DNA of 64,000 nt from Methanobacteriota archaeon (GCA_019654055.1 BPDA01000003.1:161-64160), one strand, 5' to 3'; numbered from the stretch's first letter, positions 2,603 through 20,157 are shown. Program-made: numbers and translations. The notes: generated from the letters alone by a model not told the origin.

Positions 2603-5386
2603 GTGCATACCATGAACCGTAAATCGATAGCAATGATGCTCACAGGAATAATCCTAGTCAGTCTAAACATGTTCGTCCTGACCGGGGTAGTCGCAAGCAA
2701 CGTCCAAGCCGGAGTCGGGGAACTGATTGTCGCCGACAGAGATGGAGTGATAGAAGATGGTCAGGAAGAGCCGGACAAGTGGGAGAGAGATGATTGGCTA
2801 GTACAGACCTCCGAGAGAGCCTACTTCGCCTACAACCTGACGGACACAGATTGGCGAAACAGTGGACATGATGTCCCACCTTTCGAGAAGATGGGGCCAT
2901 TCATCTACACGGTCACCACGACCAAGGATGTTCTAGACTTCGACCCTGAGGGTGGCACCATCACCTACTCGGAGTACGACTCGTTTGATTGGTGCGAGAA
3001 TTGCACGTGGGTAGATGAAGAAGGCACCCCGCACGCATCGGTCTCGGGAGACTACGAGTTGACGAATGCGAACATCCTCTGGAACACGCAGAGGATGGCT
3101 GGAGTGGCCACCGGGATAACCTACGGCGAGATATTTGCTAAGGCTGGATTCACTCAGATGATGCTAATCAACGACATGCAGAACAGGGCGCCCAGCATCT
3201 GGGCAGCCAGCCAGATTGGCATGATGGTCCCCGGGGCATCACAGGCACTCCAGGATGCTGGCTACGACGAGGCAACCGCCGACGCCATGGCACCGGCTGC
3301 AGTCCTTAGGGGCTCGTATGACAACTGGCTCGCGCAGAGCGGCGCCAGCGACGTCGGCCCCGACTTCGCCGCATCCGCGCAGAGCATCTTGTATGATGCG
3401 GTCGACCCATCGACTGGGATTTGCATAGCGCTGACATGCGACATAGGGCCCATGCTGGTTGCTGGAATGGGGGAGCCTAGTGAAGCTACGACCTCCTCAC
3501 GCGCCGCGCTTCTAGGATACGCAAGCACCGACCCCGAGGAGCTTGCACACATCGACTGGGCTGTGTACGCACTGGCCGGGACGATCTTCCAGTCACAGGG
3601 CGGCGGGGAGGACCTCTCAACCCTATCCAACGCGTCCTTGCGCGCGAGACTGGCGGAGGTCAGCGGAGTCGATATAGCCAACCCAGTGGCCTTGAACAAC
3701 ATTCTTTGGGGAACCGAGGGCTCGAGCCCGAACAACGGAATCCTTTCCGTTTCGGACTTCCAGGGAATCCCTCTATACGGGGTCGCGCTGTTCCTGCTAG
3801 GTGCTCAGGGCGACGTCTTCGGAACGATGCTTACCTACGGCATTGGGCTGACCCAACTGATGGGTCTCGCCTATGACTGGGCAGGGATTTGGATAGACAT
3901 GGTTGGAGGCGTTCCGCTTGAATTCGAGATGATTCTTGTGGGAGGCTCCGGGACAATGGACGCCAATGCTTGGTGGCAGCACTCGTTCGGCTCCGAGGAG
4001 CCGATTGCCGGAGGATACATCCCAATCGGCCTTAACAGGGGTGATTTCGCTGGCACAGTCGATCTGACCCTTGATCAGGTGCGCGACATCCTGTATGATT
4101 CGGATTACGCACTGACCGGTGACTTCGCTACGGCGTTCGTCTACGGGGAGTTCTCAGGATCCTCCCTACCGGTTGGGTCGGAGGGGCCTGTCATGGGTGG
4201 TGACGTGCATACTTGGGACGATGCCTACGTCGCGGGACTATACGGTATCTCAGAGACAGATGCAGCCGCCCTGAAGAGCTGGGTCAAGGACTTCATGTTC
4301 GAACAGGTTGTAGGGGCTCTGCTAGCATTCCAATATGGCGCTTCAGCATATACCACGCAGCCAATTCATAACTGGCTCTATGGGTGGAGCGATCCCGTAT
4401 TGGTTGGTCTTTATGGGGAGGAGAACAGCTGGGTCAAACTCGAGACCAACGAGACCTACTACGGGTCCGGGGGGAAGAGCACGGGGGACTTCTCGGTCTA
4501 CCAGATGAAGATACCAACCAGCGTTGACGGGTTGAGTACGGCCGAGCACGCCTTCATGGAGGGTTACATCAACTCCGACGGAGACGGGTTGTGCGACTTC
4601 AAACTCGATGCCGCCGGCAACGCCGAATATGGAGTCGAGTGCGAGGCCAACGAGACCTACGGGATGACGGAGCACCTACCGTGGAGGGCCCCTCACAGGG
4701 AAGCTAGTGTGTATGGGCTACTCTCCGACCACGTCGGAAATTCCAACACTGAGATTACTGGGACCATAGGCGGCATTGCAGACGCCGACGAGCCATTCAG
4801 TGTCAATCTAGTTGGATACTCAATAGCACAGACCGAAGTGGGTGAGACCGTGACCTACAAGGGAATCGAGATGGTCGAACATCACGTTGCGCTGGACCCC
4901 GCCGAGAACCAGATCCAGGCCAAGTTGGTTGGATTCAGCTTGGGTGAGGTAGCGGTCCTTCCCGGGGCTCTGCCAGTCTACTTCGGTTCAAGTGTTGACA
5001 TCAAGGTCGAGCCGGTGACCAACGTCGCGATGTACGGCAAGTCGGTTTCTAGATTCTACCTCGACCTCAGATGGGCGGGTGCGATGAACCCTGACTTCAC
5101 CGACGCTGACGGCGACGGCGAGCCAGACGATTGGCAGACGCAGCCGGTATTTGAGATTCACACCTTCAGCGAGATTGGTGATGATGATGCTGCCTCGTTC
5201 AAGTGCACTGTGATTGACCACATGAGTTCTACTTGGTGGACTGACTTCGGTGGCGAGGGCGACTGCGAGCTTGAGGCTTTGACTACCTTCTCATACATCG
5301 CAGCGCTACTCTACGTCGCTGGAATCGGTCTAGCCGTCTACGGTGGCATGGGCCTGATTGCGACCTCCAGAGAAGAAGAGGTATAG
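2603..5386 (+). CDS. CD36/LIMP-2/SR-B-like ectodomain protein with N- and C-terminal TM anchors
   Basis: 927 aa. An N-terminal TM (IAMMLTGIILVSLNMFVLTGVV) and a C-terminal TM (FSYIAALLYVAGIGLAVYGGMGLIA) bracket a large ectodomain. Colinear CD36-family-like blocks are present (YFAYNLTD..GPFIYTV..GGTITYSEY; NWLYGWSDPVL; PVFEIHTFSEIGDDD). Confidence 0.6.
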   Translation: MHTMNRKSIAMMLTGIILVSLNMFVLTGVVASNVQAGVGELIVADRDGVIEDGQEEPDKWERDDWLVQTSERAYFAYNLTDTDWRNSGHDVPPFEKMGPFIYTVTTTKDVLDFDPEGGTITYSEYDSFDWCENCTWVDEEGTPHASVSGDYELTNANILWNTQRMAGVATGITYGEIFAKAGFTQMMLINDMQNRAPSIWAASQIGMMVPGASQALQDAGYDEATADAMAPAAVLRGSYDNWLAQSGASDVGPDFAASAQSILYDAVDPSTGICIALTCDIGPMLVAGMGEPSEATTSSRAALLGYASTDPEELAHIDWAVYALAGTIFQSQGGGEDLSTLSNASLRARLAEVSGVDIANPVALNNILWGTEGSSPNNGILSVSDFQGIPLYGVALFLLGAQGDVFGTMLTYGIGLTQLMGLAYDWAGIWIDMVGGVPLEFEMILVGGSGTMDANAWWQHSFGSEEPIAGGYIPIGLNRGDFAGTVDLTLDQVRDILYDSDYALTGDFATAFVYGEFSGSSLPVGSEGPVMGGDVHTWDDAYVAGLYGISETDAAALKSWVKDFMFEQVVGALLAFQYGASAYTTQPIHNWLYGWSDPVLVGLYGEENSWVKLETNETYYGSGGKSTGDFSVYQMKIPTSVDGLSTAEHAFMEGYINSDGDGLCDFKLDAAGNAEYGVECEANETYGMTEHLPWRAPHREASVYGLLSDHVGNSNTEITGTIGGIADADEPFSVNLVGYSIAQTEVGETVTYKGIEMVEHHVALDPAENQIQAKLVGFSLGEVAVLPGALPVYFGSSVDIKVEPVTNVAMYGKSVSRFYLDLRWAGAMNPDFTDADGDGEPDDWQTQPVFEIHTFSEIGDDDAASFKCTVIDHMSSTWWTDFGGEGDCELEALTTFSYIAALLYVAGIGLAVYGGMGLIATSREEEV

Positions 5387-5477: not shown

Positions 5478-8400
5478 ATGAGTGTACGCCCTAGGCGCTG
5501 TGCGGCGGCGCTCTCGCTGGGCATCTTGATGCTGATGTCGCTGTCGCCGGTCCTGATTGACGGACTTGGCGGAACGGGACCTGCAAGAAGCGCCTCCAAC
5601 CGCTCCACGAACTGCTCAGCGATATGCATCAACGAGATGATGCCCAACGCCGACGGCTCCGATCAGGGTGTGTTCCCGAACGGGGAGTGGGTCGAGCTGC
5701 ACAACTCGGGCTCAGTGGGCATCAGCCTTGAGAGTTGGACCCTTGAGGATGTCGGCGGCTGGATTCACCCAATCGATTCGTCAACCTGGGTTGGTTTCGA
5801 CCAGCTCCCCAATCCATACGTCATTTCAGCTGGCTCCTACGTCGTAATCGCCGAGAACGAGGTCGGCACCCTGAGGCTGAACAACGCAGGCGAGACGCTG
5901 TACCTCAAGGATGCCAGCGGGGCCATCATCCACACAGTGACTACCGGCGAGGCATCCAACGGGATCTCGAAGATTCCCACTGCTGATTCATCTGCGGATT
6001 GGGTCGACTCAGAGGAGAACACCCCCGGGGCTGAGAACTCCGAGGGGACAGGTGGTGGCGGAGGAGAGACAGGGGGGACTCCCTACGATCTCACTCGGGT
6101 GATGATGATGCCGAGCGGGGCCGAGGTCACTGGACTGCATGTCAACTCACTGGGTAATCTGTTCGTCAACGCGATGCACCCCGACGATGATTACTACGAT
6201 GCCACGGTCGGGGTGGTCAACGGGGTTGATTGGAATGCCCTTCCGGATGTGGTTCCTGAGCTCGAGCTTTCCAGTAGCGAATGGGATGTCTGGCATGGCG
6301 TAAGGGTGTCTCACGGAGATTACCAGGTGCTCGTGCAAAGCGGTGATGGGCTGTCCGAGGGGGGTGTTGCAGGGGGTATCTACGCTGTCGATGACGGTGA
6401 GCTCCTGTTCACCAGCCAGAAGCCAGACTTCAACGCCTTCGTCCCCCTGAACCCACAGGGCACCAGAGGCTATCTGTACACTACCTGGGAGAGTCGGCCT
6501 GCAGGGGTGAGTCAGCTCTTGATTCAGTGGAACTCGGCCTCGGAGGAATGGGACGTCCTAGGTGGCTTGATGCAGGACCTCAGCGGGATGAACGGTGGAT
6601 GGGTGCTGTGCTTTGGCTCAATCAGCCCGTGGGGCACTCCACTTCTCTCCGAAGAGCTCTACTTCGCCGACACAGAAAACTGGAACGACCCCGGTTACCA
6701 TTATCACTCAGACCAACAGGAACTGGCCGATTACTTGGGCTACTACCCCAATCCATACGATTACGGTTGGATCGTTGAGATAGAGGATGCGGATACGCCG
6801 ACGCCGACCTTCGAAAAGCAACTCTCGATGGGCAGATTCTCACACGAGAACGCTCAGGTTATGCCCGATCAGAGGACGGTGTACCTGTCTGACGACGAGT
6901 ACGGGACGGTGCTGTTCAAATTCATGGCTGACACGCCAGGTGACCTAGAATCGGGTACCTTGTATGCTGCTAGGGTCACACAGGACTTAGGAAGTAATCC
7001 CGCTACCACTGGGTTCGACGTTCAGTGGGTGGAGTTGGCTTCATCCAGCGATTCTCAGATTGAGGCTTGGATAGACGAGTATGATGGCATCACCACTGCG
7101 GATTTCGTCGATGGTGAGAACTCTTACATCTCCAATCAGGAGATCAACGACTGGGCCGAGGGAATCCTAGACGACGATTTGGATGGTGACGGCGATGTCG
7201 GTTCGGCAGTCGACGACAGGGTCGCATTCCTCGAATCAAGGAAGGCTGCCGGAGCCATCGGGGCCACCGACGAGTGGAACAAGATGGAGGGAGTTGTCTT
7301 CAACCCCGCAGCACCTGGTTACGTGTATCTGGCAATGTCGGACATCCGATACGACATGAGCGACTCGCAAGGAGACATCAGGCTGTCCGAGAACCGCTGC
7401 GGGATAGTCTACAGGATGCCGGTTGAGGACGACTGGGATGTCAGTCGGATTGAGCCGGTTATCGCTGGTGGAACCTACTCATCCGGCTCGTGCGACCCGA
7501 ACCGAATAGCCGGACCCGACAACCTAGCTGTGCTCGATGATGGCAGGGTCCTAGTGGCCGAGGACACCGGCAAGCACGACAACAACATGCTATGGCTCTG
7601 GGATCCTCCCGTCGAGCCGACCGAATGGGACGGCGAGTACGACGTGAAGTTCACCCGCATCATGCCTGCAGAGGTCCCGGACAGGGACAACGACTGGTTC
7701 GAGTTGACCAACACGGGGGACTCGGTTGTCAATCTGGCTGGCTGGACCATCGAACGCATCCGCTCGACCGAACCCTGGGTATCTATGGTCAACGATCTAA
7801 CAATCGATGCAGGTGCGTCAGTGGTGCTGACCGAGAACCCAGCCAACCTACTCGCGGACGGGGGCATCGAGGCCCTCGATGGCAACGTCGTGCTGAACAA
7901 CATGCCCTGGTTAGTTGACTCCGGCAGCGCCCTGCAGCTGAAGGCCCCCGACGGCACCGTGGTGGATGCCATAGCCTTCGGCGGTGGAATCGCCGAGATT
8001 AATGGCTGGCAGGGCGCTGCCGTGTCAGTACCCGGAGATGGGACACCTGGGCTCATCCTGATGCGCGGCGGCGGCTGCGGAGACTACCCCGACACAGATA
8101 CCGGGTCGGACTGGGAGCAGCGATGGATTAGGATTGGCGCCTCGACCTTTTGTGATGGAGGGCACTTCACGACAGGAGCAGCCTCGTCCGTATCCGCCTC
8201 AATAGGCCCAGATTCGGCCTTCAACGACTTGAAGCAGTGGATTGAGGCTGCCGAGAGTTCCATCCACCTGCACGTCTACCAGTTCATGAGCCCCGATCTG
8301 ACCCAAACGCTCCTCGATGCGATTGCCAGAGGGGTCGAGGTGACGCTGCTGCTTGAAGAAGGGATTCTCGATGGCAGCAGCACGGTCAACAACCAGAGGG

Positions 8401-10052
8401 GGCACGCACAGACTCTGCATGATGCGGGTGCGACGGTTCTCTGGATGGAGGACCCTACTCAGATCAGTTCGCCTTACGCGTTCATTCACAGCAAGGTGGC
8501 TGTCAGAGACTCTGAGAGCGTGTGGATCTCGTCTGGTAACTGGAAAGACACCAGCGTGCCTCCCGATGGGGTAGGCAACCGCGAGTGGTCAGTGATATTG
8601 AACTCCCAAGCCGCTGCCGAGTTGGTCCTGTCCCGGATGGCATGGGACGAGAATGCTCAGCATCTGCACATCTTCCCTCACTCGTCTTGGCACGCTCCGA
8701 CTTTCGACTGGACCATGGAGGAGCCGTGGCACGAGGGCGAACTGACGCCCATCGAGTACCATCAGGGTCCGTTCGATGCCCAACTCCTGACTTGTCCTGA
8801 TGACTGCGTCACGGGCATAGTCTCGATGATCGAATCAGCGCAGCAATCAATCGAACTTTCTGTGCAGTATTTGGATCTGGACTGGTACTGGGGCTTCGGT
8901 GAAAACCCAATCATTGCTGCTCTCCACGATGCAGCGCAGAGAGGCGTAAGCATACGCCTGATGCTGAACGGATTCTACGCAGAGTGGGACGAAGAGATTC
9001 GCGATGCCATCCACATGTTCAACACGGATTGGAACGCGACCGAGGGGCTCGATGCCACGGCGCGGCTGATGGCCTACTCCGACACCATCGTCAAACTGCA
9101 CAACAAGGGCGCCATCATCGATGGCTCAAGTGTTCTCGTTGGAAGCATGAACTGGGGTTCAAGTGCGGCATTGAGGAACCGCGAGATGGGTGTGCTGATC
9201 CACCATCAGGGGCTCGCCGCTGAATACTCTGCCTCCTTTGAGGAGGACTGGAACAGATTGGATCCGACTACCGACTCAGACGGTGACTTGCTCCCGGACC
9301 AGTGGGAGGTCGAGTACGGGCTCAACCGGCACTCTGCGGCCGTCCTCGGTACAGCCCTCAGCGAGCAGTCTCTGGACCCTGACGAGGACGGGTTGAACAA
9401 CCTCGAGGAGTTCCAGTTGAACGGGGACCCGTTGTCCAATGACACCGACGGCGACTGCATACCCGACGGTGAGGAGTCGGCATTCGCGCAAAGCGTACTC
9501 CGCTCGCCCTCATTCGCCATGACTTCCGGAGACGTGGACGAGAACGGCGTACCAGACGGGGAGCAGTACGGCTGCCAGACCATAGTGGACGGAGGCGGGA
9601 CCGGTGGCGGGGATGACGGTGAGGCAGGAGGTAACGACTCAGTGGAGGAAGAGCCCGACGACGGCTTCCTCAACATCAGGGAAGATCCGCTATCTAGGCC
9701 GGGGGCGAAATTCCTGTTCTGGTTGATGGTCATTTCCACGATATCACTGGCTCTGGCCGGAGCCTCGATGTTCCTGCAGCCCCGCAAGGGTACAGACGAG
9801 GTTCTCGTCGACGACTCCGGCTACAAGTTCGACGACCCGGACTCCAGTCTGGCGATTCTCAAAGGGACCAGTTTTGACGAAGGGGCAGAGGACGCGCGCG
9901 CGCGAAAGGAGGGGCGAGATGACGGCTCGCACGGCTCCATCAGACTGGATGGTTTCGGATTCGAATCCTCCACGCGTGACGAGGTCCAGTGGATGCTAGA
10001 TCAGGGGCACACGATGGATGAGGTTCGCGCCGAGCTCGGAGAGGAGGAGTGA
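5478..10052 (+). CDS. giant anchored ecto-phosphoesterase: LTD - PhoX/DUF839-like phosphatase - LTD - PLD-superfamily (2x HKD) - TSP3-like repeats - TM - cytoplasmic tail
   Basis: 1524 aa with an N-terminal signal/TM. Two lamin-tail-domain-like segments (CINEMMPN..GEWVELHNSG; FTRIMPAEVPDRDNDWFELTNTG). PhoX-like core (MGRFSHENAQVMPDQRTVYLSDDEYG; PDNLAVLDDGRVLVAEDTG). Two HKD motifs (FIHSKVAVRDSESVWISSGNW; KLHNKGAIIDGSSVLVGSMNWG). D-rich repeats (DSDGDLLPD, DPDEDGLNN, DTDGDCIPD). C-terminal TM FLFWLMVISTISLALAGASMFL. Confidence 0.8.
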   Translation: MSVRPRRCAAALSLGILMLMSLSPVLIDGLGGTGPARSASNRSTNCSAICINEMMPNADGSDQGVFPNGEWVELHNSGSVGISLESWTLEDVGGWIHPIDSSTWVGFDQLPNPYVISAGSYVVIAENEVGTLRLNNAGETLYLKDASGAIIHTVTTGEASNGISKIPTADSSADWVDSEENTPGAENSEGTGGGGGETGGTPYDLTRVMMMPSGAEVTGLHVNSLGNLFVNAMHPDDDYYDATVGVVNGVDWNALPDVVPELELSSSEWDVWHGVRVSHGDYQVLVQSGDGLSEGGVAGGIYAVDDGELLFTSQKPDFNAFVPLNPQGTRGYLYTTWESRPAGVSQLLIQWNSASEEWDVLGGLMQDLSGMNGGWVLCFGSISPWGTPLLSEELYFADTENWNDPGYHYHSDQQELADYLGYYPNPYDYGWIVEIEDADTPTPTFEKQLSMGRFSHENAQVMPDQRTVYLSDDEYGTVLFKFMADTPGDLESGTLYAARVTQDLGSNPATTGFDVQWVELASSSDSQIEAWIDEYDGITTADFVDGENSYISNQEINDWAEGILDDDLDGDGDVGSAVDDRVAFLESRKAAGAIGATDEWNKMEGVVFNPAAPGYVYLAMSDIRYDMSDSQGDIRLSENRCGIVYRMPVEDDWDVSRIEPVIAGGTYSSGSCDPNRIAGPDNLAVLDDGRVLVAEDTGKHDNNMLWLWDPPVEPTEWDGEYDVKFTRIMPAEVPDRDNDWFELTNTGDSVVNLAGWTIERIRSTEPWVSMVNDLTIDAGASVVLTENPANLLADGGIEALDGNVVLNNMPWLVDSGSALQLKAPDGTVVDAIAFGGGIAEINGWQGAAVSVPGDGTPGLILMRGGGCGDYPDTDTGSDWEQRWIRIGASTFCDGGHFTTGAASSVSASIGPDSAFNDLKQWIEAAESSIHLHVYQFMSPDLTQTLLDAIARGVEVTLLLEEGILDGSSTVNNQRGHAQTLHDAGATVLWMEDPTQISSPYAFIHSKVAVRDSESVWISSGNWKDTSVPPDGVGNREWSVILNSQAAAELVLSRMAWDENAQHLHIFPHSSWHAPTFDWTMEEPWHEGELTPIEYHQGPFDAQLLTCPDDCVTGIVSMIESAQQSIELSVQYLDLDWYWGFGENPIIAALHDAAQRGVSIRLMLNGFYAEWDEEIRDAIHMFNTDWNATEGLDATARLMAYSDTIVKLHNKGAIIDGSSVLVGSMNWGSSAALRNREMGVLIHHQGLAAEYSASFEEDWNRLDPTTDSDGDLLPDQWEVEYGLNRHSAAVLGTALSEQSLDPDEDGLNNLEEFQLNGDPLSNDTDGDCIPDGEESAFAQSVLRSPSFAMTSGDVDENGVPDGEQYGCQTIVDGGGTGGGDDGEAGGNDSVEEEPDDGFLNIREDPLSRPGAKFLFWLMVISTISLALAGASMFLQPRKGTDEVLVDDSGYKFDDPDSSLAILKGTSFDEGAEDARARKEGRDDGSHGSIRLDGFGFESSTRDEVQWMLDQGHTMDEVRAELGEEE

Positions 10053-11329
10053 TGTCCGAGGCGATTCGCCGCCTCGTTCAAGGCGTGGTTGACGGTTCGC
10101 TGTCCGATGACGAGTTGGCCGAGTGGCTGCGTGACGTATTCGACGAAGGGCTCTCCGAGCAGGATACGGTAACCCTGACTGAAGCGATGCGGGACTCGGG
10201 CGATGTCCTGGAATGGAGCTCCGATATCTCTGATCTAGTGGTCGACAAGCACTCCACAGGGGGAGTGGGTGACAAGGTGTCGCTGGTACTAGCCCCCGCC
10301 CTAGCATCGTGCGGTCTGAAGGTGCCTATGATCTCGGGCCGGGGGCTGGGCCATACCGGAGGAACACTGGACAAGCTGGAGAGCATCCCGGGGTTCAGCG
10401 TGGAAATGGGGATCAGCGGCATCCGCGAGCAGGTCGAGGGCATCGGCGTCGCCATGGTCGGCCAGAGCGACGCTCTAGTCCCTGCAGACCGTCGCATGTA
10501 CGCCATGCGCGACGTCACCGGGACGGTGGCGTCGATTCCCCTGATTACTTCCTCAATCGTATCCAAGAAGGCGGCTGAGGGGCTGTCTGCGCTGGTACTG
10601 GACGTCAAGTTCGGCCGGGCCGCCTTCATGCCCGAGCGCGAGCATGCCGAGGAATTGGCGCGCTCGCTCGTCGATGCCGCAAACGGCATGGGAATCGCGA
10701 CCACGGCGGTGCTGACTTCGATGGAGCAGCCCCTCGGCTGCGCCATAGGCAACTCGCTGGAGGTCCTCGAGAGCGTCGAGACGCTGTGCGGAAGGGGTCC
10801 CGAGGACCTCGAAGAGTTGGTCTGCGTGCAGGGCGGCCTACTTCTGCAAGCCACTGGGCTTGCAGCTGGCTTCGAGGCCGGGGCGGTGATGATTCACGAT
10901 AGTCTGCATGACGGTTCAGCATTCCAAAGGTTTCGCGAGATGGTGCAGGCCCAAGGGGGAGACGCCTCGGTCCTCGACAGCGACGCTTCGCTGACGCGGG
11001 GGCTGGGGCTGATGGGTCCGGAACTGAACACCACCGAGCTGTCATCTGGCTCGGCGGGTTGGGTTGAGGACATCGATGCCATGGCAATCGCCACGGCATG
11101 CTTGGGGCTCGGTGCTGGAAGGACCAGATTGGGAGACATAGTCGACCGTGCGGTGGGTGCCATCCTCGAGGTGCAGGTCGGGGACCGATTGGAGGTGGGG
11201 GAGCCATGGATGGTCCTCTACCACCGCGGTGAGATGGACAGGGGGGTCTTGGAGGGGCTTCTGGGTTCAATCACGCTCTCCGACGAAGAGGTAGTCCCCA
11301 AATCGAGGATAGCAGAGGTGTTTGAATGA
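10049..11329 (+). CDS. deoA: thymidine/pyrimidine-nucleoside phosphorylase
   Basis: 426 aa with family motifs DKHSTGGVGDKVSLVLAP and GRGLGHTGGTLDKLESIPGF. It lacks the N-terminal extension of archaeal AMP phosphorylase. The GTG start overlaps the upstream TGA (GTGATG). Confidence 0.85.
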   Translation: MMSEAIRRLVQGVVDGSLSDDELAEWLRDVFDEGLSEQDTVTLTEAMRDSGDVLEWSSDISDLVVDKHSTGGVGDKVSLVLAPALASCGLKVPMISGRGLGHTGGTLDKLESIPGFSVEMGISGIREQVEGIGVAMVGQSDALVPADRRMYAMRDVTGTVASIPLITSSIVSKKAAEGLSALVLDVKFGRAAFMPEREHAEELARSLVDAANGMGIATTAVLTSMEQPLGCAIGNSLEVLESVETLCGRGPEDLEELVCVQGGLLLQATGLAAGFEAGAVMIHDSLHDGSAFQRFREMVQAQGGDASVLDSDASLTRGLGLMGPELNTTELSSGSAGWVEDIDAMAIATACLGLGAGRTRLGDIVDRAVGAILEVQVGDRLEVGEPWMVLYHRGEMDRGVLEGLLGSITLSDEEVVPKSRIAEVFE

Positions 11330-12168
11330 GGTTCGGCCACATAGACCGGATTAGGGCCATCGCCGTGCTTTGCATGGTCGAGGTTCACACGGCTGCAATC
11401 ATCCCCCCGGAGGGCATCAGCGTAGGCCACCCTGCCGCCTTCGTCGCGGCTGCCTTCGGCGGCATGGCCGCTCCCATGTTCGTGACCATATCCGGCTGGG
11501 GCATCCACACCAGTGCCACTCGTAGGGCCGCAGACCCGAGCCATGACACTGGGATGTGGCTGCGATGGCTGACCCCGAGGGTCCTGCTGCTGGGCCTGTG
11601 CCAACTGCTAGTCAACCTGCTTCTCAACGTCGACAGGGGTGGTCGCTTCGAATGGCATACCCCCGGCGTCCTGACGCTGCTGGCCGTAGCCGCTCTGCTG
11701 GCACCAGTCCTGATACGACTGTCGATGCGCTCGCGCACGGGGCTGATGCTGCTGATGGTGGCTTCTCCTCTGGCTCTGGGGGACGCCTCGGGCACGGACT
11801 GGACGTGGTGGGAGAGGGTCGGTTCCCAAGGGGCCTCCGAATGGCTCGCGAGGCTGCTGTGGAACGGTACCTACCCTGCGGTGCCGTGGCTGGGCTTCGT
11901 CCTTCTGGGCTCCATCATCCACGACCTCGCCGACGAACCCTCTGCCAGAGAGCGTAACATCGCCCTCGGCCTAGTTGCCACCTCCGTCACCGCAGCAGTA
12001 GCGGCCTACGAAGGCATCCCGTGGGCCCTGACCGAGGGTGAGGCGGTGCTGACGTTCTTCCCTGCCAGCCCAGCCTTCCTTGTGGTATCGGGAACCTTCG
12101 TACTACTCGCCCACAGGGCGCTTGAGGGCTCGGAGTCCAGAGGCGGGGAGCCAGGGGGGAGGAGATAG
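11326..12168 (+). CDS. DUF1624/heparan-alpha-glucosaminide N-acetyltransferase-like membrane acyltransferase, interrupted by in-frame TAG
   Basis: The N-terminal IDRIRAIAVLCMVEVH is typical of DUF1624, and the protein has multiple TM segments. The ORF ends at TAG 12166-12168, but the family-typical C-terminus continues in the same frame. Confidence 0.6.
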   Translation: MRFGHIDRIRAIAVLCMVEVHTAAIIPPEGISVGHPAAFVAAAFGGMAAPMFVTISGWGIHTSATRRAADPSHDTGMWLRWLTPRVLLLGLCQLLVNLLLNVDRGGRFEWHTPGVLTLLAVAALLAPVLIRLSMRSRTGLMLLMVASPLALGDASGTDWTWWERVGSQGASEWLARLLWNGTYPAVPWLGFVLLGSIIHDLADEPSARERNIALGLVATSVTAAVAAYEGIPWALTEGEAVLTFFPASPAFLVVSGTFVLLAHRALEGSESRGGEPGGRR

Positions 12169-12396
12169 CTGGAGTTTCTCGAGCCGGCAGGTCGAATCAC
12201 GCTCACGATCTACGTCGCTCACTTCGCCGTCCTCGGAGCGGTTGCGTCGGCGATGCAGGGCGAACCTCGGCTGGAGCTCGTCCCGGCTTTCGCTGCGACC
12301 ATCGCCCACACCCTGATCTGGATTCCCCTAGCGGTCTGGCACCAGAAGCACATCCCCGAAGTCTCGTTGGAGTCCATGTTGAGGAGACTCAGTTAG
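12169..12396 (+). other. in-frame continuation of the DUF1624 gene after the TAG codon
   Basis: My translation in the same frame gives LEFLEPAGRITLTIYVAHFAVLGAVASAMQGEPRLELVPAFAATIAHTLIWIPLAVWHQKHIPEVSLESMLRRLS, then TAG at 12394-12396. It is hydrophobic and family-like (G-R-x-x-L-x-I-Y-x-x-H) and has no start codon of its own. Confidence 0.55.
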
Positions 12397-15262: not shown

Positions 15263-15366
15263 CGGAGGGTCGACCTCCCAAGTGTCAGGATTCCCTCCCT
15301 GCCAGCTCGGCGTGACCTGCCCGATGTCATCGCCCTGCCTGAGGTCGAACTGGTAGGGCTCGTAGG

Positions 15367-16383
15367 CTAGGTCTCGGTAGGGATGTCCCTGACGTCGATG
15401 ATGATGGTCGAGGACAGTGAGCCTCCAGTGTTTTGGACCGTGATTACGTACTCCCTCAGAGGGTGGACCGAAACCGGGGTACCTCGCAGAGAGCCATCGT
15501 ACTGGTGCAGAGTCATGCCATCAGGTAGCGGGGGTTCGATTGCCCATTCGGTCGCCTCGCCGCCCTCGTAGGATGGTATCACTTGGACAGTCTGGCCTAT
15601 GGTCCAGTAGAACGGGTGCCCGGGGTACGACAGAGCCGTGGGCTGCTCGTGCAGGGTGATAATCCTAATCGGGGCTTCGACTGAGCCGCCCGAGTTGGAG
15701 GCGGTGATGGTGTGGTTGGTGTCTCCGAGAGAGCGTGCTATCCCGGTTATCGAGCCGTCATCCAGAATCGCCAGCCCCTCAGGCAAGGAGGGGCTGACTG
15801 ACCAAGAGTCCGCCGAGCCCCCCATCACCAGGGGCTGCCCCATGGAGCACTCTTGCCACAGAGTGCACGACAGCATATCCGAGAGGTAGTGAATCGAGTC
15901 CGGTGCTGCAGCCACCACGGTGATGTCGATGGTGGTGGCCGTGGAGCCCACGGAGTTGGTCCCGATGATTGTGTGGCGAGTCTCCTCCGCCTCCTCCTCG
16001 GGAATCCCACTGATGACACCTGAGGCACCATCTAGGGACAGTCCGTCAGGTAGCCGGGGATTGACGAACCAGTTCTGCGGCCCGTCACCGAGGAAGCTCG
16101 GGGTCAGGGCCTGCATCTCGACCCCGTGGACCAGAAGTATGGAGCTCTCTCCGTAGGTCAGGGAACTCGGCTGCTGCATCAGCCTGCAGGCATCCCCGGT
16201 GAAGACTTGGTGCGACATGCAGTCGTCCTCGGTGATGACGTGGACGAAGCAGTCAGGATGGGATGGCTCAGCCACGCAGTCGACCTCTTCCGCGGGCTCT
16301 CCCTCCCCTCCAAACAGCCCGAGACATCCCGAGCTTAGCATCAGGATCGAGAGGACGAGGGCGGCGTTGCGCTTGGGCTGCAC
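15367..16383 (-). CDS. lipoprotein-signal plus three He_PIG Ig-like repeats; N-terminal fragment of the M60-like peptidase gene
   Basis: Signal/lipobox MQPKRNAALVLSILMLSSGC. Repeats LPDGLSLDGASGVISGIP, LPEGLAILDDGSITGIA and LPDGMTLHQYDGSLRGTP. The ORF ends mid-repeat at a TAG, and the repeat continues in the -1 frame. Confidence 0.7.
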   Translation of the reverse strand: MQPKRNAALVLSILMLSSGCLGLFGGEGEPAEEVDCVAEPSHPDCFVHVITEDDCMSHQVFTGDACRLMQQPSSLTYGESSILLVHGVEMQALTPSFLGDGPQNWFVNPRLPDGLSLDGASGVISGIPEEEAEETRHTIIGTNSVGSTATTIDITVVAAAPDSIHYLSDMLSCTLWQECSMGQPLVMGGSADSWSVSPSLPEGLAILDDGSITGIARSLGDTNHTITASNSGGSVEAPIRIITLHEQPTALSYPGHPFYWTIGQTVQVIPSYEGGEATEWAIEPPLPDGMTLHQYDGSLRGTPVSVHPLREYVITVQNTGGSLSSTIIIDVRDIPTET

Positions 16384-17800: not shown

Positions 17801-19945
17801 GTGGGAGAGTATTTTGAATCGGGGCCGACATGGTGGCCCATGAGCCGACGCGCTACCCTGACTGCCATCCTGACTGCAATGCTCCTGTTAACGGTCCCTT
17901 ACGCCGTACTCGCGACCGATTCGGACGGCGACGGCACCGACGACGCAAACGACGACTTTCCGGACAACCCGTGTGCTGACACCGACACCGACGGGGACGG
18001 GTTGCCCGACACGGTAGTGAGCGGTTGTACCTCCCAATCGGTTGTCGGCTACACCTCCTTCGAGGACCCTTTCACCATCGCGAGCGTGAAGTACACTGAC
18101 ACTGGAAACGATTCGGTCAGCAGGTACCTTTGGAACAACGCCAACGAACCGCATATCGCCCACAACCAGACTAATGGGACAGAGATGGGTTTCACCCTCT
18201 ACTACACCTCGACTGGTGGCGTCGGACTGACTGACGGTGACTACTTCGGCACAATCAACTACACCGGGACTGTCGGCAGCTTCACCGATGGTAACAACGG
18301 CTACCAGATGTCGGATGTCGATGGCATCGCTACTCTGGCTCTCGATGATATCACAGCAGAAGTGGTGACTTTCGACTTCTTCCTCCAAGACACCGGATAC
18401 GAGACCTCGAACCCCGTGGACTACCTCGTAATCAGATTCATCGGCGCGAACAGCGATATCGAAATCGTCAACACAACGGGCTACGACATCGACACCGACA
18501 ACTCGTCATGGCTCGACACGTGGACGACGATGACGGTGATGATAGGAGCGGCCGGGCACGGTCATCTCGAAGTCGAATTCTCCTCGAACTCTGCTATGGA
18601 GGCCCTGTACCTCGACAACATCCAATTTACTGCTGCGGTGACGCTGTCGGCCGATACCGACGATGACGGGGACGGGTGGAGCGATGTCGATGAGACGGAT
18701 TGCGGGACCGATCCGCTGGACGGTAACGACGTGCCCGCGGACACTGACATGAACGGCATCTGCGACGCTCTCGAGGGCGATGACTTCGACGGCGATGGGA
18801 TTCCGAACGACAGTGATCCCGACGACGACAACGACGGTGTGGATGATATCGATGACGATTTCCCGCTGAACCCCAACGAGACCACGGACACCGATGGGGA
18901 TGGTGTGGGGGACAACGCCGACGAGGACGACGACGACGATGGTTGGTTAGACGACAACGAGCTGGGCTGCGGGACAGACCCGCTGGATGACTCTTCAGTC
19001 CCATCCGACTACGACGCCGACTCCGTGTGCGACTCACTAGATGCGGATGACGACAACGATGGCGTCGACGACGCGGACGACGCGTTTCCCCACGACGACA
19101 CCGAGTGGATCGACACCGATGGGGACGGTAAGGGAGACAATGCCGACGAGGACGATGACAACGACGGCTGGGATGACTCCGACGAGTCGTCTTGCGGCAC
19201 CGATCCAGGCGATGCCGGCTCCGTTCCCGCGGACCTAGATGCGGATGGCACTTGCGATGCGCTGGACGATGACACCGACGGCGATGGGTGGTTAGACTCC
19301 GACGAGTCGTCTTGCGGCACCGACCCAAGCGACGCCGGTTCGGTCCCATCAGACGTGGACTCCGACGGGGATTGCGACGTTCTGGACGAGGACGCGGACA
19401 ACGACGGCTGGAGTGACTCCGACGAGGCGACCTGCGGGAGCGACACGATGGACCCGGACTCCGTGCCGGCAGACCAAGACGGGGACTCCGAATGCGACGC
19501 TGTTGACTCGGACATCGACGGTGACGGTCATGACAACGACGCTGACGAGTTCCCTGGGATGCCTCCGAGTGGGTGGACAGTGACGGGGATGGCACCGGAG
19601 ACAATGCGGACGCCGATGACGACGGAGACGGCTGGGACGATGATGTCGATGAGTTTCCACATGACGACACCGAGTGGGTGGACAGTGACGGGGATGGCAC
19701 CGGAGACAATGCGGACGCCGATGACGACGGAGACGGCTGGTCCGACGCGACCGAGTCCGACTGCGGCAGCGACGGGGTGGACGAGGATTCGGTGCCGGCC
19801 GACTTCGACGGTGATGGCCAGTGCGACGACCTCGACCCGGACGACGACGGTGACGGAGTTGCAGACAGCGATGATGCGATGCCGAATGATCAGAGCGAGT
19901 GGGACGACACCGACGGCGACGGAATCGGAGACAACGCCGACCTAG
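17801..19945 (+). CDS. secreted thrombospondin-type-3-repeat (D-x-D-x-D-G) surface protein, N-terminal fragment (authentic frame only to ~19557)
   Basis: N-terminal signal/TM (ATLTAILTAMLLLTVPYAVLA). Many DTDGDG.GDNADEDDDNDGW..SDE..CGTDP repeats. After ~19557 the translation turns into low-complexity T/M/P/R text, while the repeats continue in another frame. Confidence 0.75.
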   Translation: MGEYFESGPTWWPMSRRATLTAILTAMLLLTVPYAVLATDSDGDGTDDANDDFPDNPCADTDTDGDGLPDTVVSGCTSQSVVGYTSFEDPFTIASVKYTDTGNDSVSRYLWNNANEPHIAHNQTNGTEMGFTLYYTSTGGVGLTDGDYFGTINYTGTVGSFTDGNNGYQMSDVDGIATLALDDITAEVVTFDFFLQDTGYETSNPVDYLVIRFIGANSDIEIVNTTGYDIDTDNSSWLDTWTTMTVMIGAAGHGHLEVEFSSNSAMEALYLDNIQFTAAVTLSADTDDDGDGWSDVDETDCGTDPLDGNDVPADTDMNGICDALEGDDFDGDGIPNDSDPDDDNDGVDDIDDDFPLNPNETTDTDGDGVGDNADEDDDDDGWLDDNELGCGTDPLDDSSVPSDYDADSVCDSLDADDDNDGVDDADDAFPHDDTEWIDTDGDGKGDNADEDDDNDGWDDSDESSCGTDPGDAGSVPADLDADGTCDALDDDTDGDGWLDSDESSCGTDPSDAGSVPSDVDSDGDCDVLDEDADNDGWSDSDEATCGSDTMDPDSVPADQDGDSECDAVDSDIDGDGHDNDADEFPGMPPSGWTVTGMAPETMRTPMTTETAGTMMSMSFHMTTPSGWTVTGMAPETMRTPMTTETAGPTRPSPTAAATGWTRIRCRPTSTVMASATTSTRTTTVTELQTAMMRCRMIRASGTTPTATESETTPT
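19565..19740 (+). repeat. two exact 71-bp direct repeats, 105 bp apart, inside the TSP3 coding region
   Basis: ccgagtgggtggacagtgacggggatggcaccggagacaatgcggacgccgatgacgacggagacggctgg occurs at 19565-19635 and again at 19670-19740. Confidence 0.9.
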
Positions 19946-20157
19946 ATGACGATAATGACGGTTGGTCCGATGCTGAGGAAGGTGAATGCGGGGCTGACCA
20001 GTACGACAGTGACAGCACGCCGACCGATTACGATAACAACGGGGTGTGTGACGCCAACGACCCCATCATCGAGCCGGAGCCCGAGGGCACCCCCGGATTC
20101 GGCCTAATCTCGGCTCTGGCCATGCTCGCCCTTGCGGCTTTCGCTCGAAGGGATTGA
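19573..20157 (+). CDS. C-terminal fragment of the same TSP3-repeat protein, ending in a PGF-CTERM archaeal sorting signal
   Basis: Continues the DSDGDGTGDNADADDDGDGW repeats. The C-terminus EGTPGFGLISALAMLALAAFARRD matches the PGF-CTERM pattern (PGF, hydrophobic helix, basic end). Confidence 0.75.
   Translation: MDSDGDGTGDNADADDDGDGWDDDVDEFPHDDTEWVDSDGDGTGDNADADDDGDGWSDATESDCGSDGVDEDSVPADFDGDGQCDDLDPDDDGDGVADSDDAMPNDQSEWDDTDGDGIGDNADLDDDNDGWSDAEEGECGADQYDSDSTPTDYDNNGVCDANDPIIEPEPEGTPGFGLISALAMLALAAFARRD

Follow-up and report, generated by a model that had tools for sequence, protein, structure and literature searches.

The DNA analysed here, a stretch of 64,000 nucleotides (the window), encodes at 5478..10052 (+ strand, ATG to TGA) a 1524-aa protein of a Thalassarchaeaceae (MGIIb, Marine Group II b) archaeon, and what is new about it is that a PhoX-type phosphatase occupies, as a discrete cassette, the space between the two lamin-tail domains (LTDs) of a conserved LTD-LTD-PLD surface protein. 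We give a probability of about one half to the reading that this protein is a surface-anchored bifunctional phosphoesterase, in which a PLD-superfamily diesterase and a PhoX monoesterase are combined and which is predicted to act on DNA or RNA. Few uncultured plankton are as abundant as Marine Group II archaea, whose part in recycling extracellular DNA and organic phosphorus in dissolved form is ill defined. With a diesterase joined to PhoX and tethered at the surface, they would be able to turn polymeric organic phosphorus directly into phosphate and nucleosides. Each of the domains is well known on its own, and existing concepts are left unchallenged.

Domain architecture and predicted topology

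From the N to the C terminus, the protein consists of a signal, an LTD, PhoX, a second LTD, two HKD PLD domains, four acidic repeats, a transmembrane (TM) helix and a 92-aa tail. These features and the two neighbouring genes are located in the window as follows, "long" and "short" denoting forms of the protein with and without the PhoX cassette.

2603..5386, + strand: upstream gene for a 927-aa protein that has TM helices at its N and C termini and matches the CD36 family (Pfam CD36)
5478..5606, + strand: N-terminal signal/hydrophobic region, Sec-type, residues 1-43, h-region about 7-32 (hydropathy)
5607..6038, + strand: lamin-tail domain 1, residues 44-187 (Pfam LTD, 61.2 bits), in long and short forms
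6039..6086, + strand: Gly-rich linker, residues 188-203, the 5' junction of the cassette (from the sequence; the alignment with P0048, a short form, breaks here)
6087..7616, + strand: PhoX-type beta-propeller cassette, residues 204-713, circularly permuted (Pfam, PDB profile, AF2)
7626..8162, + strand: lamin-tail domain 2 with an extension, residues 717-895 (Pfam LTD, 53 bits; the short-form alignment resumes at 717)
8163..9263, + strand: two-HKD PLD-superfamily module, residues 896-1262 (PLDc_2 twice, AF2, Foldseek, profiles)
8487..8510, + strand: HKD motif 1, HSKVAVRD (H1004, K1006, D1011), conserved in homologues
9099..9122, + strand: HKD motif 2, HNKGAIID (H1208, K1210, D1215), conserved in homologues
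9264..9575, + strand: four acidic repeats of D-x-D-x-D-G type (TSP3-like), residues 1263-1366 (visible motifs)
9576..9698, + strand: Gly/Asp/Glu-rich juxtamembrane linker (composition)
9699..9773, + strand: single C-terminal TM helix, residues about 1408-1432 (hydropathy)
9774..10052, + strand: predicted cytoplasmic tail, acidic, 92 aa (1433-1524), and stop codon (conserved across the family)
10052..11329, + strand: thymidine/pyrimidine-nucleoside phosphorylase gene, whose ATG shares bases with the target's TGA (TGATG)

The sequence-only reading had proposed this inventory and order, and both were borne out by the Pfam search, in which the LTDs (PF00932; residues 44-157 with 61.2 bits and 722-834 with 53 bits, gathering score 34.3), PhoX (PF05787, DUF839; residues 371-703, 103.4 bits against a gathering threshold of 24) and the PLD domains (PLDc_2; residues 919-1051 with 62.7 bits and 1114-1258 with 84.8 bits, gathering score 27) all scored far above their thresholds. 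Since the whole-protein E-values lie between 1e-30 and 4e-40, these matches are not due to chance, and the loss of the PhoX or PLD domains in profile searches, which that reading had named as grounds for giving it up, did not occur: both were recovered. Hydropathy likewise agrees with the proposed signal and single membrane span, as it reveals exactly two hydrophobic segments, at residues ~7-32 and ~1408-1434, which fit an N-terminal signal and a single C-terminal TM helix. We infer from them a type-I topology with anchoring at the cell surface. The RPRR in the signal had suggested export by the Tat pathway, a candidate that was rejected since homologues do not conserve the twin arginine and keep one Arg only in their consensus.

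The acidic repeats are indeed four in number; their TSP3 label is approximate, as TSP3_bac (PF18884) reaches 22.1 bits and thus falls under the Pfam gathering score of 25, and NCBIfam returns weak MtsD/CglD matches. They presumably form a Ca-binding stalk. A cytoplasmic tail does follow the TM helix, at 92 aa rather than the ~95 aa first estimated, and it is conserved across the family, even in forms that are ~50% identical. Neither a Pfam match to this tail nor a similar tail elsewhere in the window was found, and an impression that it resembles SHOCT is unsupported. The PGF-CTERM signature (PGF motif, TM helix and short basic tail) is absent from the target, which ends instead in its TM helix and the acidic tail; within the window, a TSP3 protein at 19573..20157 has PGF-CTERM. 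The ectodomain is very acidic (258 D+E vs 72 K+R), which is unusual for a DNA-binding enzyme and speaks against the favoured model, although the proteome of the organism may be the sole reason for it.

The fusion is a genuine polypeptide

The target ORF is a genuine polypeptide and no assembly chimera. The exact 1524-aa protein is present on 92 contigs from four sources, near-identical copies are found on two cloned fosmids, and the same architecture recurs in 24 protein clusters (64-97% identity). Furthermore, dN/dS amounts to ~0.04-0.07 for PhoX, PLD and all other modules, a value that rests on three informative pairs, with dS saturated in most species pairs, and that indicates strong purifying selection. 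A false join of separate PhoX and PLD genes, the failure that the sequence-only reading had itself envisaged, or a decaying pseudogene might be suspected from the imperfect sequence quality seen in damaged neighbours in the window (a frameshift in each of the M60 peptidase and TSP3-repeat genes and an in-frame stop in the acyltransferase gene), but it is refuted by the contigs, fosmids, clusters and dN/dS above together with 20 species genomes that have the long form, and its probability is next to nil.

The PhoX cassette is circularly permuted

The PhoX core recognised earlier is only part of the homologous module, which extends over residues 204-713 (510 residues) and is thus wider than the region aligned by Pfam. 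It is also circularly permuted: the first ~45 residues of the cassette have their counterpart in the segment at the C terminus of canonical PhoX, giving the segment order A-B-C where crystallised PhoX has B-C-A. The family profile matches the PDB entries of Pseudomonas fluorescens PhoX (3zwu/4amf) with E = 2e-28, and a second aligned stretch shows the permutation.

PhoX is an Fe3+/Ca2+ phosphomonoesterase, which amends the initial description of the enzyme as simply Ca-dependent. Since the signal looks Sec-type, this Fe/Ca cofactor would need to be acquired extracellularly, in seawater that is poor in iron, an observation that weighs against the main model. C378, E457, D473 and K602 of the target align to C179, E273, D292 and R385 of the P. 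fluorescens enzyme. We take Cys179 to be an Fe ligand of PhoX and Glu273 to be an active-site position, an assignment that also leans on the position of the two residues within conserved motifs. The equivalent of the former, C378, lies in WVLCFGSISPWGTPLLSEE, which aligns to NCANGKTPWGTYLTCEE and conforms to the PhoX Cys motif that we tested, C-x-G-x-x-(S/T)-P-W-G-T-x-L-x-x-E-E, while E457 (in GRFSHEN) and D473 (in LSDDEYG) do not vary among the fused, stand-alone and bacterial proteins. PMC11098088 names D292 and R385 as active-site residues of PhoX. The position of the phosphate-contacting Arg385 is taken by Lys602. Most proteins of this branch carry Lys there, and so does Psip1 (PMC11098088). 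Judged from the Cys, Glu and Asp equivalents, the PhoX module looks catalytically competent.

The AF2 model of the cassette is a propeller (pLDDT 74.6). Among its best 50 Foldseek matches in the PDB, 3ZWU is absent and generic six-bladed propellers (PON1, Diels-Alderases) appear instead, a miss for which the circular permutation and low-confidence helical inserts may account. An NCBIfam search with the cassette gave no match. We regard the sequence profiles, on which PhoX homology is based, as decisive and do not count the Foldseek miss against it, although the miss stays a point on the negative side for the main model as a whole. The target and P. fluorescens PhoX (3ZWU/4AMF) thus appear to share a homologous beta-propeller and the Cys, Glu and Asp above, but they differ in the Arg/Lys exchange, in the type of signal (Tat in P. 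fluorescens, Sec-like in the target) and in segment order; moreover, the bacterial protein is a free periplasmic or secreted enzyme, whereas the archaeal one is embedded as an internal cassette.

Origin and distribution of the cassette

The scaffold of signal, LTD1, LTD2, two-HKD PLD module, acidic repeats, TM helix and tail is found family-wide at one chromosomal locus. Between LTD1 and LTD2, the cassette is present in 20 of the 61 species-representative genomes with complete genes and absent in the other 41; its distribution is patchy, and two genes are mosaic. Over its full length it is 65-72% identical to stand-alone PhoX of Poseidoniales, proteins of ~720 aa (e.g. P0145, P0061) that are widespread across the archaeal order and have the same permuted domain with the same boundaries. 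The stand-alone proteins additionally have a signal peptide, a C-terminal extension of ~150 aa and PGF-CTERM, all three of which the cassette has lost. One fused cassette (in P0023) is 95% identical to the stand-alone P0061, with identical boundaries.

By these comparisons, the target's cassette goes back to a PhoX of the stand-alone kind with a PGF-CTERM anchor, from within the same order of archaea, and capture from stand-alone archaeal PhoX happened at least twice, into exactly the same inter-LTD position; the neighbour-joining trees carry no support values, and the number of gains and losses is unquantified. They further point to transfer of the cassette between species by recombination, flanking LTDs included (e.g. 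at loci L055 and L041). We count repeated capture and interspecies transfer as arguments for selection on the coupling of the modules. In an unrelated surface protein made up of LTD plus amidohydrolase (P0051), a similar cassette is found that is 83% identical. The locus also illustrates cleanly two kinds of change: recombination of whole domains in a surface protein of archaea, and circular permutation inside the PhoX family.

The PLD module and its likely substrate

Both HKD motifs lie where the sequence-only reading had placed them (HSKVAVRD at 1004, HNKGAIID at 1208), and each is followed by a G/S-S-x-N element (SSGNW and GSMNW, respectively). Across 34 homologues, the most distant with 23% identity, and likewise across 30 species, the His, Lys and Asp of each set and the Asn downstream never change, which as far as conservation can tell leaves a module that looks catalytically competent. 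Its AF2 model (pLDDT 89.9, pTM 0.91) has a bilobed, pseudo-dimeric alpha/beta fold, for which Foldseek finds, at a probability of 1.0 and TM scores of 0.62-0.68, SpPLD, PLD3/4, PLD1/2 and F13. The best of these structural matches, which is also among the top three profile matches, is SpPLD (7e0m), the phospholipase D of Serratia plymuthica, which acts on lipids (PMC8004604); PLD1/2 resemble the module in fold as closely as the PLD3/4 nucleases do. Given that SpPLD is a lipid PLD, the fold match leaves the substrate of the target unsettled.

Profile comparison gives its best PDB matches to Nuc (8e-14), NucT (2.5e-12) and Zucchini (1e-11) as opposed to PLD1 (1e-3); SpPLD is matched too, and phosphatidylserine synthase (PSS) weakly (2e-5). 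The NCBIfam search is headed by DrmC and NucT, and no nuclease model there reaches its cut-off (NucT, PRK13912, 58.9 vs 297; DrmC, 88.6 vs 133); the cut-offs for cardiolipin synthase are missed as well (42.5 vs 290 for TIGR04265, 21.7 vs 281 for ClsB). Nuc, NucT and DrmC are the nearest relatives of the PLD module, which is itself no member of those equivalogs.

The gene overlapping the target's 3' end is identified as a phosphorylase (NCBIfam PRK05820, 449 bits vs 269, and TIGR02644, 441.8 vs 409; Pfam Glycos_transf_3 and PYNP_C). The overlap of stop and start codons is retained, whether the form is long or short, in nearly all loci with a PLD identity of 58% or more, a gene order that suggests translational coupling and fits a nucleic-acid substrate. 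Because of this overlapping gene and the proximity of the PLD profile to Nuc/NucT, we favour nucleic acid as substrate. The linkage is lost in divergent clades, where the phosphorylase gene is missing (L068-L075) or separated by a gap of ~70 nt (L074-L085), and the gene order may therefore be inherited rather than reflect functional coupling.

A different, and in our estimation unlikely, function would be the scavenging of phospholipids or glycerophosphodiesters, in which PLD acts on membrane debris or vesicles to yield phosphatidic acid, PhoX takes the phosphate, and CD36-like uptake leads to beta-oxidation. Besides the SpPLD match and the weaker ones to cardiolipin synthase and PSS, this reading can draw on the CD36-family gene, which lies 91 nt upstream in the same orientation, and on a documented link in marine bacteria between phospholipid catabolism and phosphate acquisition (PMC10132767). 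The CD36 match itself (Pfam, 29.8 bits vs a gathering score of 26.5) covers ~85 of the 927 residues, an NCBIfam search with this neighbour gave no match, and its position next to the target is conserved in the close clade only, being absent from divergent clades that keep the PLD gene; a connection to the target's function through lipid uptake is possible. What further argues against lipid scavenging is the weakness of the PLD1 profile match relative to Nuc/NucT (1e-12 to 1e-14), the nature of the overlapping gene, which encodes a nucleoside phosphorylase and no lipid enzyme, and the chemistry, since PLD-type cleavage leaves the phosphate on the lipid and action of PhoX on phosphatidic acid was not found in the literature that we consulted.

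Proposed mechanism and coupling of the two activities

This anatomy is consistent with what was first suggested from the sequence, namely that a diesterase would act at the cell surface and a monoesterase after it. In the mechanism that we favour for a nucleic-acid substrate, the PLD module would cut phosphodiester bonds of DNA or RNA, dissolved or particle-bound, by metal-free chemistry via a covalent phospho-histidine intermediate on H1004 or H1208. The phosphomonoester products (nucleotides, phosphorylated ends) would then be dephosphorylated by the Fe/Ca PhoX module, held on the same chain a few nanometres away, so that phosphate and nucleosides would be set free beside the membrane; imported pyrimidine nucleosides could be split by the phosphorylase from the overlapping downstream gene. 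The LTDs may serve as Ig-like spacers or as binders of substrate or envelope, and the acidic repeats as a Ca-stiffened stalk.

The two enzymes might instead share an anchor and nothing more, acting on unrelated substrates (for PhoX, any dissolved phosphomonoester), with the stalk replacing the PGF-CTERM anchor. The occurrence of the cassette in P0051, the 41 species that do without it in this gene, the wide occurrence of stand-alone PhoX in the order and the adjoining N and C termini of the propeller, which make it insertable into any linker, would all be expected if this were so. However, capture at least twice, independently, at the identical inter-LTD position of the PLD scaffold and recombination of the cassette along with its flanking LTDs argue against mere co-anchoring, as do fusions of PhoX to other phosphodiesterases that recur elsewhere, namely to PhoD (P0192) and to an EEP nuclease (P0260: PKD, Exo_endo_phos, DUF5017 and PhoX). 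Like the target, these proteins place a diesterase or nuclease and PhoX on one chain; they differ in the superfamily of the partner, have neither LTD nor PLD, and are uncharacterised metagenome singletons. Such recurrence suggests a functional pairing of diesterase and monoesterase and also counts in favour of the nucleic-acid reading; we consider co-anchoring improbable.

It is very unlikely that the PLD module works as a transferase or remodels the envelope (in the manner of a synthase for cardiolipin or phosphatidylserine, or of a polymer phosphotransferase on the archaeal envelope): although synthases exist among HKD enzymes, weak matches to two of them are seen (42.5 bits and 2e-5, above), the IMG name of the target reads 'cardiolipin synthase-like enzyme' and the conserved cytoplasmic tail hints at intracellular partners, the synthase score is far under its cut-off, the extracellular catalytic module is >140 stalk residues from the membrane, where membrane lipid is hard to reach, and fusion to a phosphatase and LTDs better suits a degradative exo-enzyme.

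Returning to the nucleic-acid reading, it is tempting to speculate that a recombination-mobile PhoX cassette has repeatedly been caught, out of the stand-alone archaeal phoX gene, by the same inter-LTD linker of a conserved HKD nuclease on the MGIIb surface to make a single-chain machine that converts dissolved DNA or RNA to phosphate and nucleosides, and that its presence or absence among close relatives is adaptive and tracks phosphorus limitation in the ocean; we hold this wider idea tentatively, as one that is probably not correct in full. Long and short forms at one locus in sister species constitute a natural experiment on the coupling of sequential exo-enzymes, and ocean metagenomes already available would allow the cassette polymorphism to be used as a marker and compared with gradients of phosphate.

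Relation to known systems

The literature consulted on Poseidoniales/Marine Group II, PhoX, PLD, LTD and extracellular nucleases yielded no description of the target protein, in agreement with the initial impression that the domain combination is undescribed, yet the protein already has entries in public databases, with automatically assigned names ('DUF839 domain-containing protein', 'putative phosphatase' and, in IMG, 'cardiolipin synthase-like enzyme/secreted PhoX family phosphatase').

There is precedent for an LTD in phosphoesterases, among them the nuclease ExeM/Xds with its membrane anchor (PMC6085458), which speaks for the nucleic-acid reading. Like the target, ExeM of Shewanella oneidensis and Xds of Vibrio cholerae combine a signal, an LTD, a nuclease and a C-terminal membrane anchor (PMC6085458), and the enzyme is kept at the cell envelope, as is predicted for the target. 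Their nuclease, however, belongs to the EEP superfamily with OB folds, not to the two-HKD PLD type, their anchor is of the GlyGly-CTERM/rhombosortase type instead of a TM helix with a conserved 92-aa tail, and their hosts are bacterial where ours is archaeal. Vibrio is described as using DNA as a phosphate source by means of nucleases and separate phosphatases (PMC6085458; PMC4714964), whereas the target has PhoX on the same chain.

On the PLD side, the HKD endonucleases Nuc (pKM101, 1BYR) and NucT (Helicobacter pylori, 6EHI) together with Zucchini/MitoPLD give the best profile matches and have HKD chemistry in common with the target; these are single-HKD subunits of ~155-200 aa that dimerise, whereas the target carries two HKD halves in one chain. 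The lysosomal 5' exonucleases PLD3/PLD4 and SpPLD are single-chain two-HKD proteins of similar size, with 15-17% identity to the target. PLD3/4 are, moreover, membrane-tethered nucleases that face away from the cytoplasm, as predicted for the target, but they are eukaryotic and lysosomal.

Architecture and authenticity of the fused protein

The + strand ORF at 5478..10052 runs from ATG to TGA and encodes 1524 residues. Profile searches recovered, above the Pfam gathering scores, the two lamin-tail domains (LTDs), the PhoX part and the two-HKD PLD module listed by the sequence-only reading, and both H-x-K-x4-D motifs were located.

Domains and motifs of the fused protein (residues; bits against Pfam gathering score)
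44-157, LTD1: lamin-tail, 61 against 34.3
371-703, PhoX/DUF839: 103 against 24
722-834, LTD2: lamin-tail, 53 against 34.3
919-1051, first PLDc_2: 63 against 27
1004, HKD motif 1: HSKVAVRD, then SSGNW, an element usual for such motifs
1114-1258, second PLDc_2: 85 against 27
1208, HKD motif 2: HNKGAIID, then GSMNW, likewise usual

Only two segments are hydrophobic: residues ~7-32, read as the signal, and ~1408-1434, read as the single TM helix proposed earlier. A large ectodomain lies between them, and the cytoplasmic tail that follows, earlier put at ~95 residues, has 92 (window 9774-10049, + strand; …GRDDGSHGSIRLDGFGFESSTRDEVQWMLDQGHTMDEVRAELGEEE). It is kept family-wide, even in ~50% identical forms, and no recognisable domain was found in it. 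The ectodomain is strongly acidic; the stretch that had been called TSP3-like has four D-x-D-x-D-G-type repeats, but scores just below the Pfam TSP3 cut-off (22.1 versus 25).

Records of the identical protein come from 92 contigs (NCBI, IMG, ENA, Logan), its 90%-identity cluster holds two cloned fosmids (“uncultured marine group II/III euryarchaeote,” annotated “putative phosphatase”), and the full Pfam set is common to 24 protein clusters (64-97% identity), the named ones being Candidatus Poseidoniales. These three lines rule out the chimeric assembly that had been raised as a possible refutation. Scanned for the PLD module, the GTDB species representatives yielded 272 relatives, of which the best 80 are all from archaeal MAGs, the classified ones from Thalassarchaeaceae or Thalassarchaeum, and the closest relative (99%) is from an Arabian Sea MAG. 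Judged by these relationships, the host is an archaeon.

Each domain is a member of a well-known family, and both LTD-bearing surface nucleases (ExeM/Xds) and, in Vibrio, extracellular DNA as a phosphate source (PMC4714964) are established. Our literature search found no paper describing the PLD-PhoX fusion or its cassette polymorphism, and database entries of proteins of this type carry automatic names only.

PhoX as an inserted cassette

BLASTP against P0048, a 1032-aa homologue with signal, LTD1, LTD2, PLD, repeats, TM, and tail, aligned residues 7-188 and 717-1524 and skipped 204-713 (window 6087-7616). On this alignment, the PhoX part is an inserted cassette. Long forms (with PhoX) and short forms (without) occupy the identical chromosomal slot, in the order TctA, ~920-aa two-TM protein, the gene itself, pyrimidine-nucleoside phosphorylase, acyltransferase, M60 peptidase (reverse), and SHMT (reverse).

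Species genomes carrying each form of the gene, among GTDB loci where it is complete
With PhoX (long form): 20
Short form, ~1000 aa: 28
~850-aa form without LTD1: 3
~1630-aa form, PhoX replaced by extra LTDs: 10

PhoX is missing from every deep branch of the scaffold tree, which makes the short form the probable ancestor. The ~1630-aa version, found in more divergent Thalassarchaeaceae (loci L074-L085 and protein P0050), has several extra LTD repeats at the PhoX position.

Over its whole length, the cassette is 65-72% identical to the stand-alone “alkaline phosphatase PhoX” of Poseidoniales, an abundant ~720-aa protein that has a signal peptide of its own and is anchored by PGF-CTERM. Presence and absence of PhoX are scattered across an NJ tree of the PLD-to-tail backbone, with several sister pairs discordant. 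In two species, L055 and L041, the locus is mosaic: identity to the window is 76-89% for LTD1, PhoX, and LTD2 but only 60-78% for PLD, tail, and downstream gene (dN in L055, 0.075 for PhoX versus 0.236 for PLD). This mosaicism indicates that homologous recombination moved the cassette together with its flanks. In another fused gene, P0023, the cassette shares 95% identity and its boundaries with a stand-alone PhoX (P0061) and nests within the stand-alone clade, which implies a second, recent capture or a gene conversion. A window-type cassette (83% identity) also lies at residues 687-1196 of an unrelated 1443-aa surface protein, P0051, which also carries an LTD and amidohydrolase domains (PF07969/PF01979). 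It is tempting to speculate, though only tentatively, that the cassette is repeatedly captured and recombination-mobile and that its presence tracks phosphorus limitation.

A circularly permuted PhoX domain

The ~45 residues that open the cassette (AEVTGLHVNSLGNLFVNAMHPDD) match, in alignment, chain positions 511-554 of Pseudomonas fluorescens PhoX, its C-terminal segment; the cassette core aligns to chain 166-349. When three segments of the domain (A, B, and C) were located in 150 PhoX/DUF839 family representatives (P0180-P0329), three permutation classes emerged, which are rotations of one ring.

Segment order among the 150 representatives
B-C-A: 47; canonical, shown by the P. fluorescens PhoX crystal structure
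A-B-C: 30; the present cassette and stand-alone archaeal PhoX
C-A-B: 8

In a closed propeller the N and C termini adjoin, so insertion into a linker would be sterically easy.

Catalytic modules and proposed mechanism

From their conservation, both the PLD and the PhoX module look competent. Neither the His, Lys, and Asp of the two HKD motifs nor the Asn downstream of them varies among 34 homologues, which go down to 23% identity, or in a comparison across 30 species, and the AF2 model of the PLD module is confident (pLDDT 89.9, pTM 0.91). In the cassette, C378 (in WVLCFGSISPWGTPLLSEE), E457 (GRFSHEN), D473 (LSDDEYG), and K602 (EWNKMEG) align to P. fluorescens Cys179, Glu273, Asp292, and Arg385, positions that are invariant or nearly so among fused, stand-alone, and bacterial members; D292 and R385 are active-site residues, and Psip1 has Lys at the latter position (PMC11098088). 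AF2 models the cassette as a beta-propeller, with moderate confidence (74.6), and Foldseek leaves the P. fluorescens structure 3ZWU outside its top 50 matches. For pairs with unsaturated dS, dN/dS is 0.04-0.07 in both modules.

Alongside this observed architecture and conservation, we infer a mechanism in which a Sec-type signal would export the protein, the C-terminal helix hold it, and the acidic repeats and linkers serve as a stalk. The HKD module would cleave phosphodiesters via a phospho-histidine intermediate, PhoX on the same chain would remove terminal phosphates, and phosphate and nucleosides would be released at the membrane, imported pyrimidine nucleosides being handled by the co-transcribed phosphorylase. 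The Fe/Ca cofactor of PhoX would need loading after Sec export, in iron-poor seawater.

Substrate of the PLD-PhoX protein

We put action on nucleic acid at a probability of roughly 0.5. Several observations favor it. The downstream gene codes for a genuine thymidine/pyrimidine-nucleoside phosphorylase (449 bits versus a cut-off of 269) and starts within the stop codon of the fused gene (TGATG). At 58% PLD-module identity or above, essentially all loci, long and short, have this junction. The PLD family profile matches Nuc (8e-14), NucT (2.5e-12), and Zucchini (1e-11), and among NCBIfam models DrmC and NucT score best. The membrane-anchored nuclease ExeM/Xds carries an LTD, as do other phosphoesterases (PMC6085458), and PhoX is also fused to PhoD or an EEP nuclease domain in other metagenomic proteins (P0192, 1210 aa, PhoD_N + PhoD + PhoX; P0260, 1899 aa, PKD + Exo_endo_phos + DUF5017 + PhoX).

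Alternatively, the substrate could be lipid, which we consider unlikely; the profile match to PLD1 (1e-3) is far weaker than those to Nuc, NucT, and Zucchini. A lipid PLD of Serratia plymuthica is the top Foldseek match and a top-three profile match (PMC8004604), and the kept upstream neighbor matches the CD36 family (29.8 versus a threshold of 26.5). Four further points speak against nucleic acid or for lipid: fold similarity to the PLD3/4 nucleases equals that to PLD1/2, the score stays below every nuclease equivalog cut-off, the ectodomain is acidic, and both neighbor linkages are gone in more divergent clades. Simple co-anchoring of PLD and PhoX, with no sequential chemistry, seems improbable as an account of the fusion.

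Neighboring genes in the window

Further genes noted in the window
2603-5386, + strand: 927-aa CD36-like protein with a TM helix at each end
11326-12387, + strand: Acyl_transf_3/HGSNAT acyltransferase
12389-16383, - strand: M60-like (enhancin-type) peptidase
17801-20157, + strand: TSP3-repeat surface protein

The CD36 match covers residues 47-132, and the gene is the kept upstream neighbor in the close clade; at loci of the ~1630-aa version, the CD36-like gene is missing and TctA is the immediate upstream neighbor, with a ~70-nt gap before the phosphorylase gene. CD36 scavenger receptors are typical of eukaryotes, and a CD36-like protein in an archaeon would merit separate attention.

Three genes within 9 kb are damaged, which suggests that the assembly carries indel errors. 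A frameshift splits the M60 peptidase gene near 15376-15382 (frame -2 to -1); relatives have it as one gene of 1326-1353 aa. The acyltransferase gene ends at a TAG at 12166-12168, just past a G-run, which is either an in-frame stop or an error in the sequence; homology to the relatives' 343- to 354-aa proteins runs on in frame to ~12384. The TSP3-repeat protein is split into two overlapping ORFs, with homology at 17840-19564 in frame 2 and then 19573-20064 in frame 1, the second ending in a PGF-CTERM signal (PGFGLISALAMLALAAFARRD).
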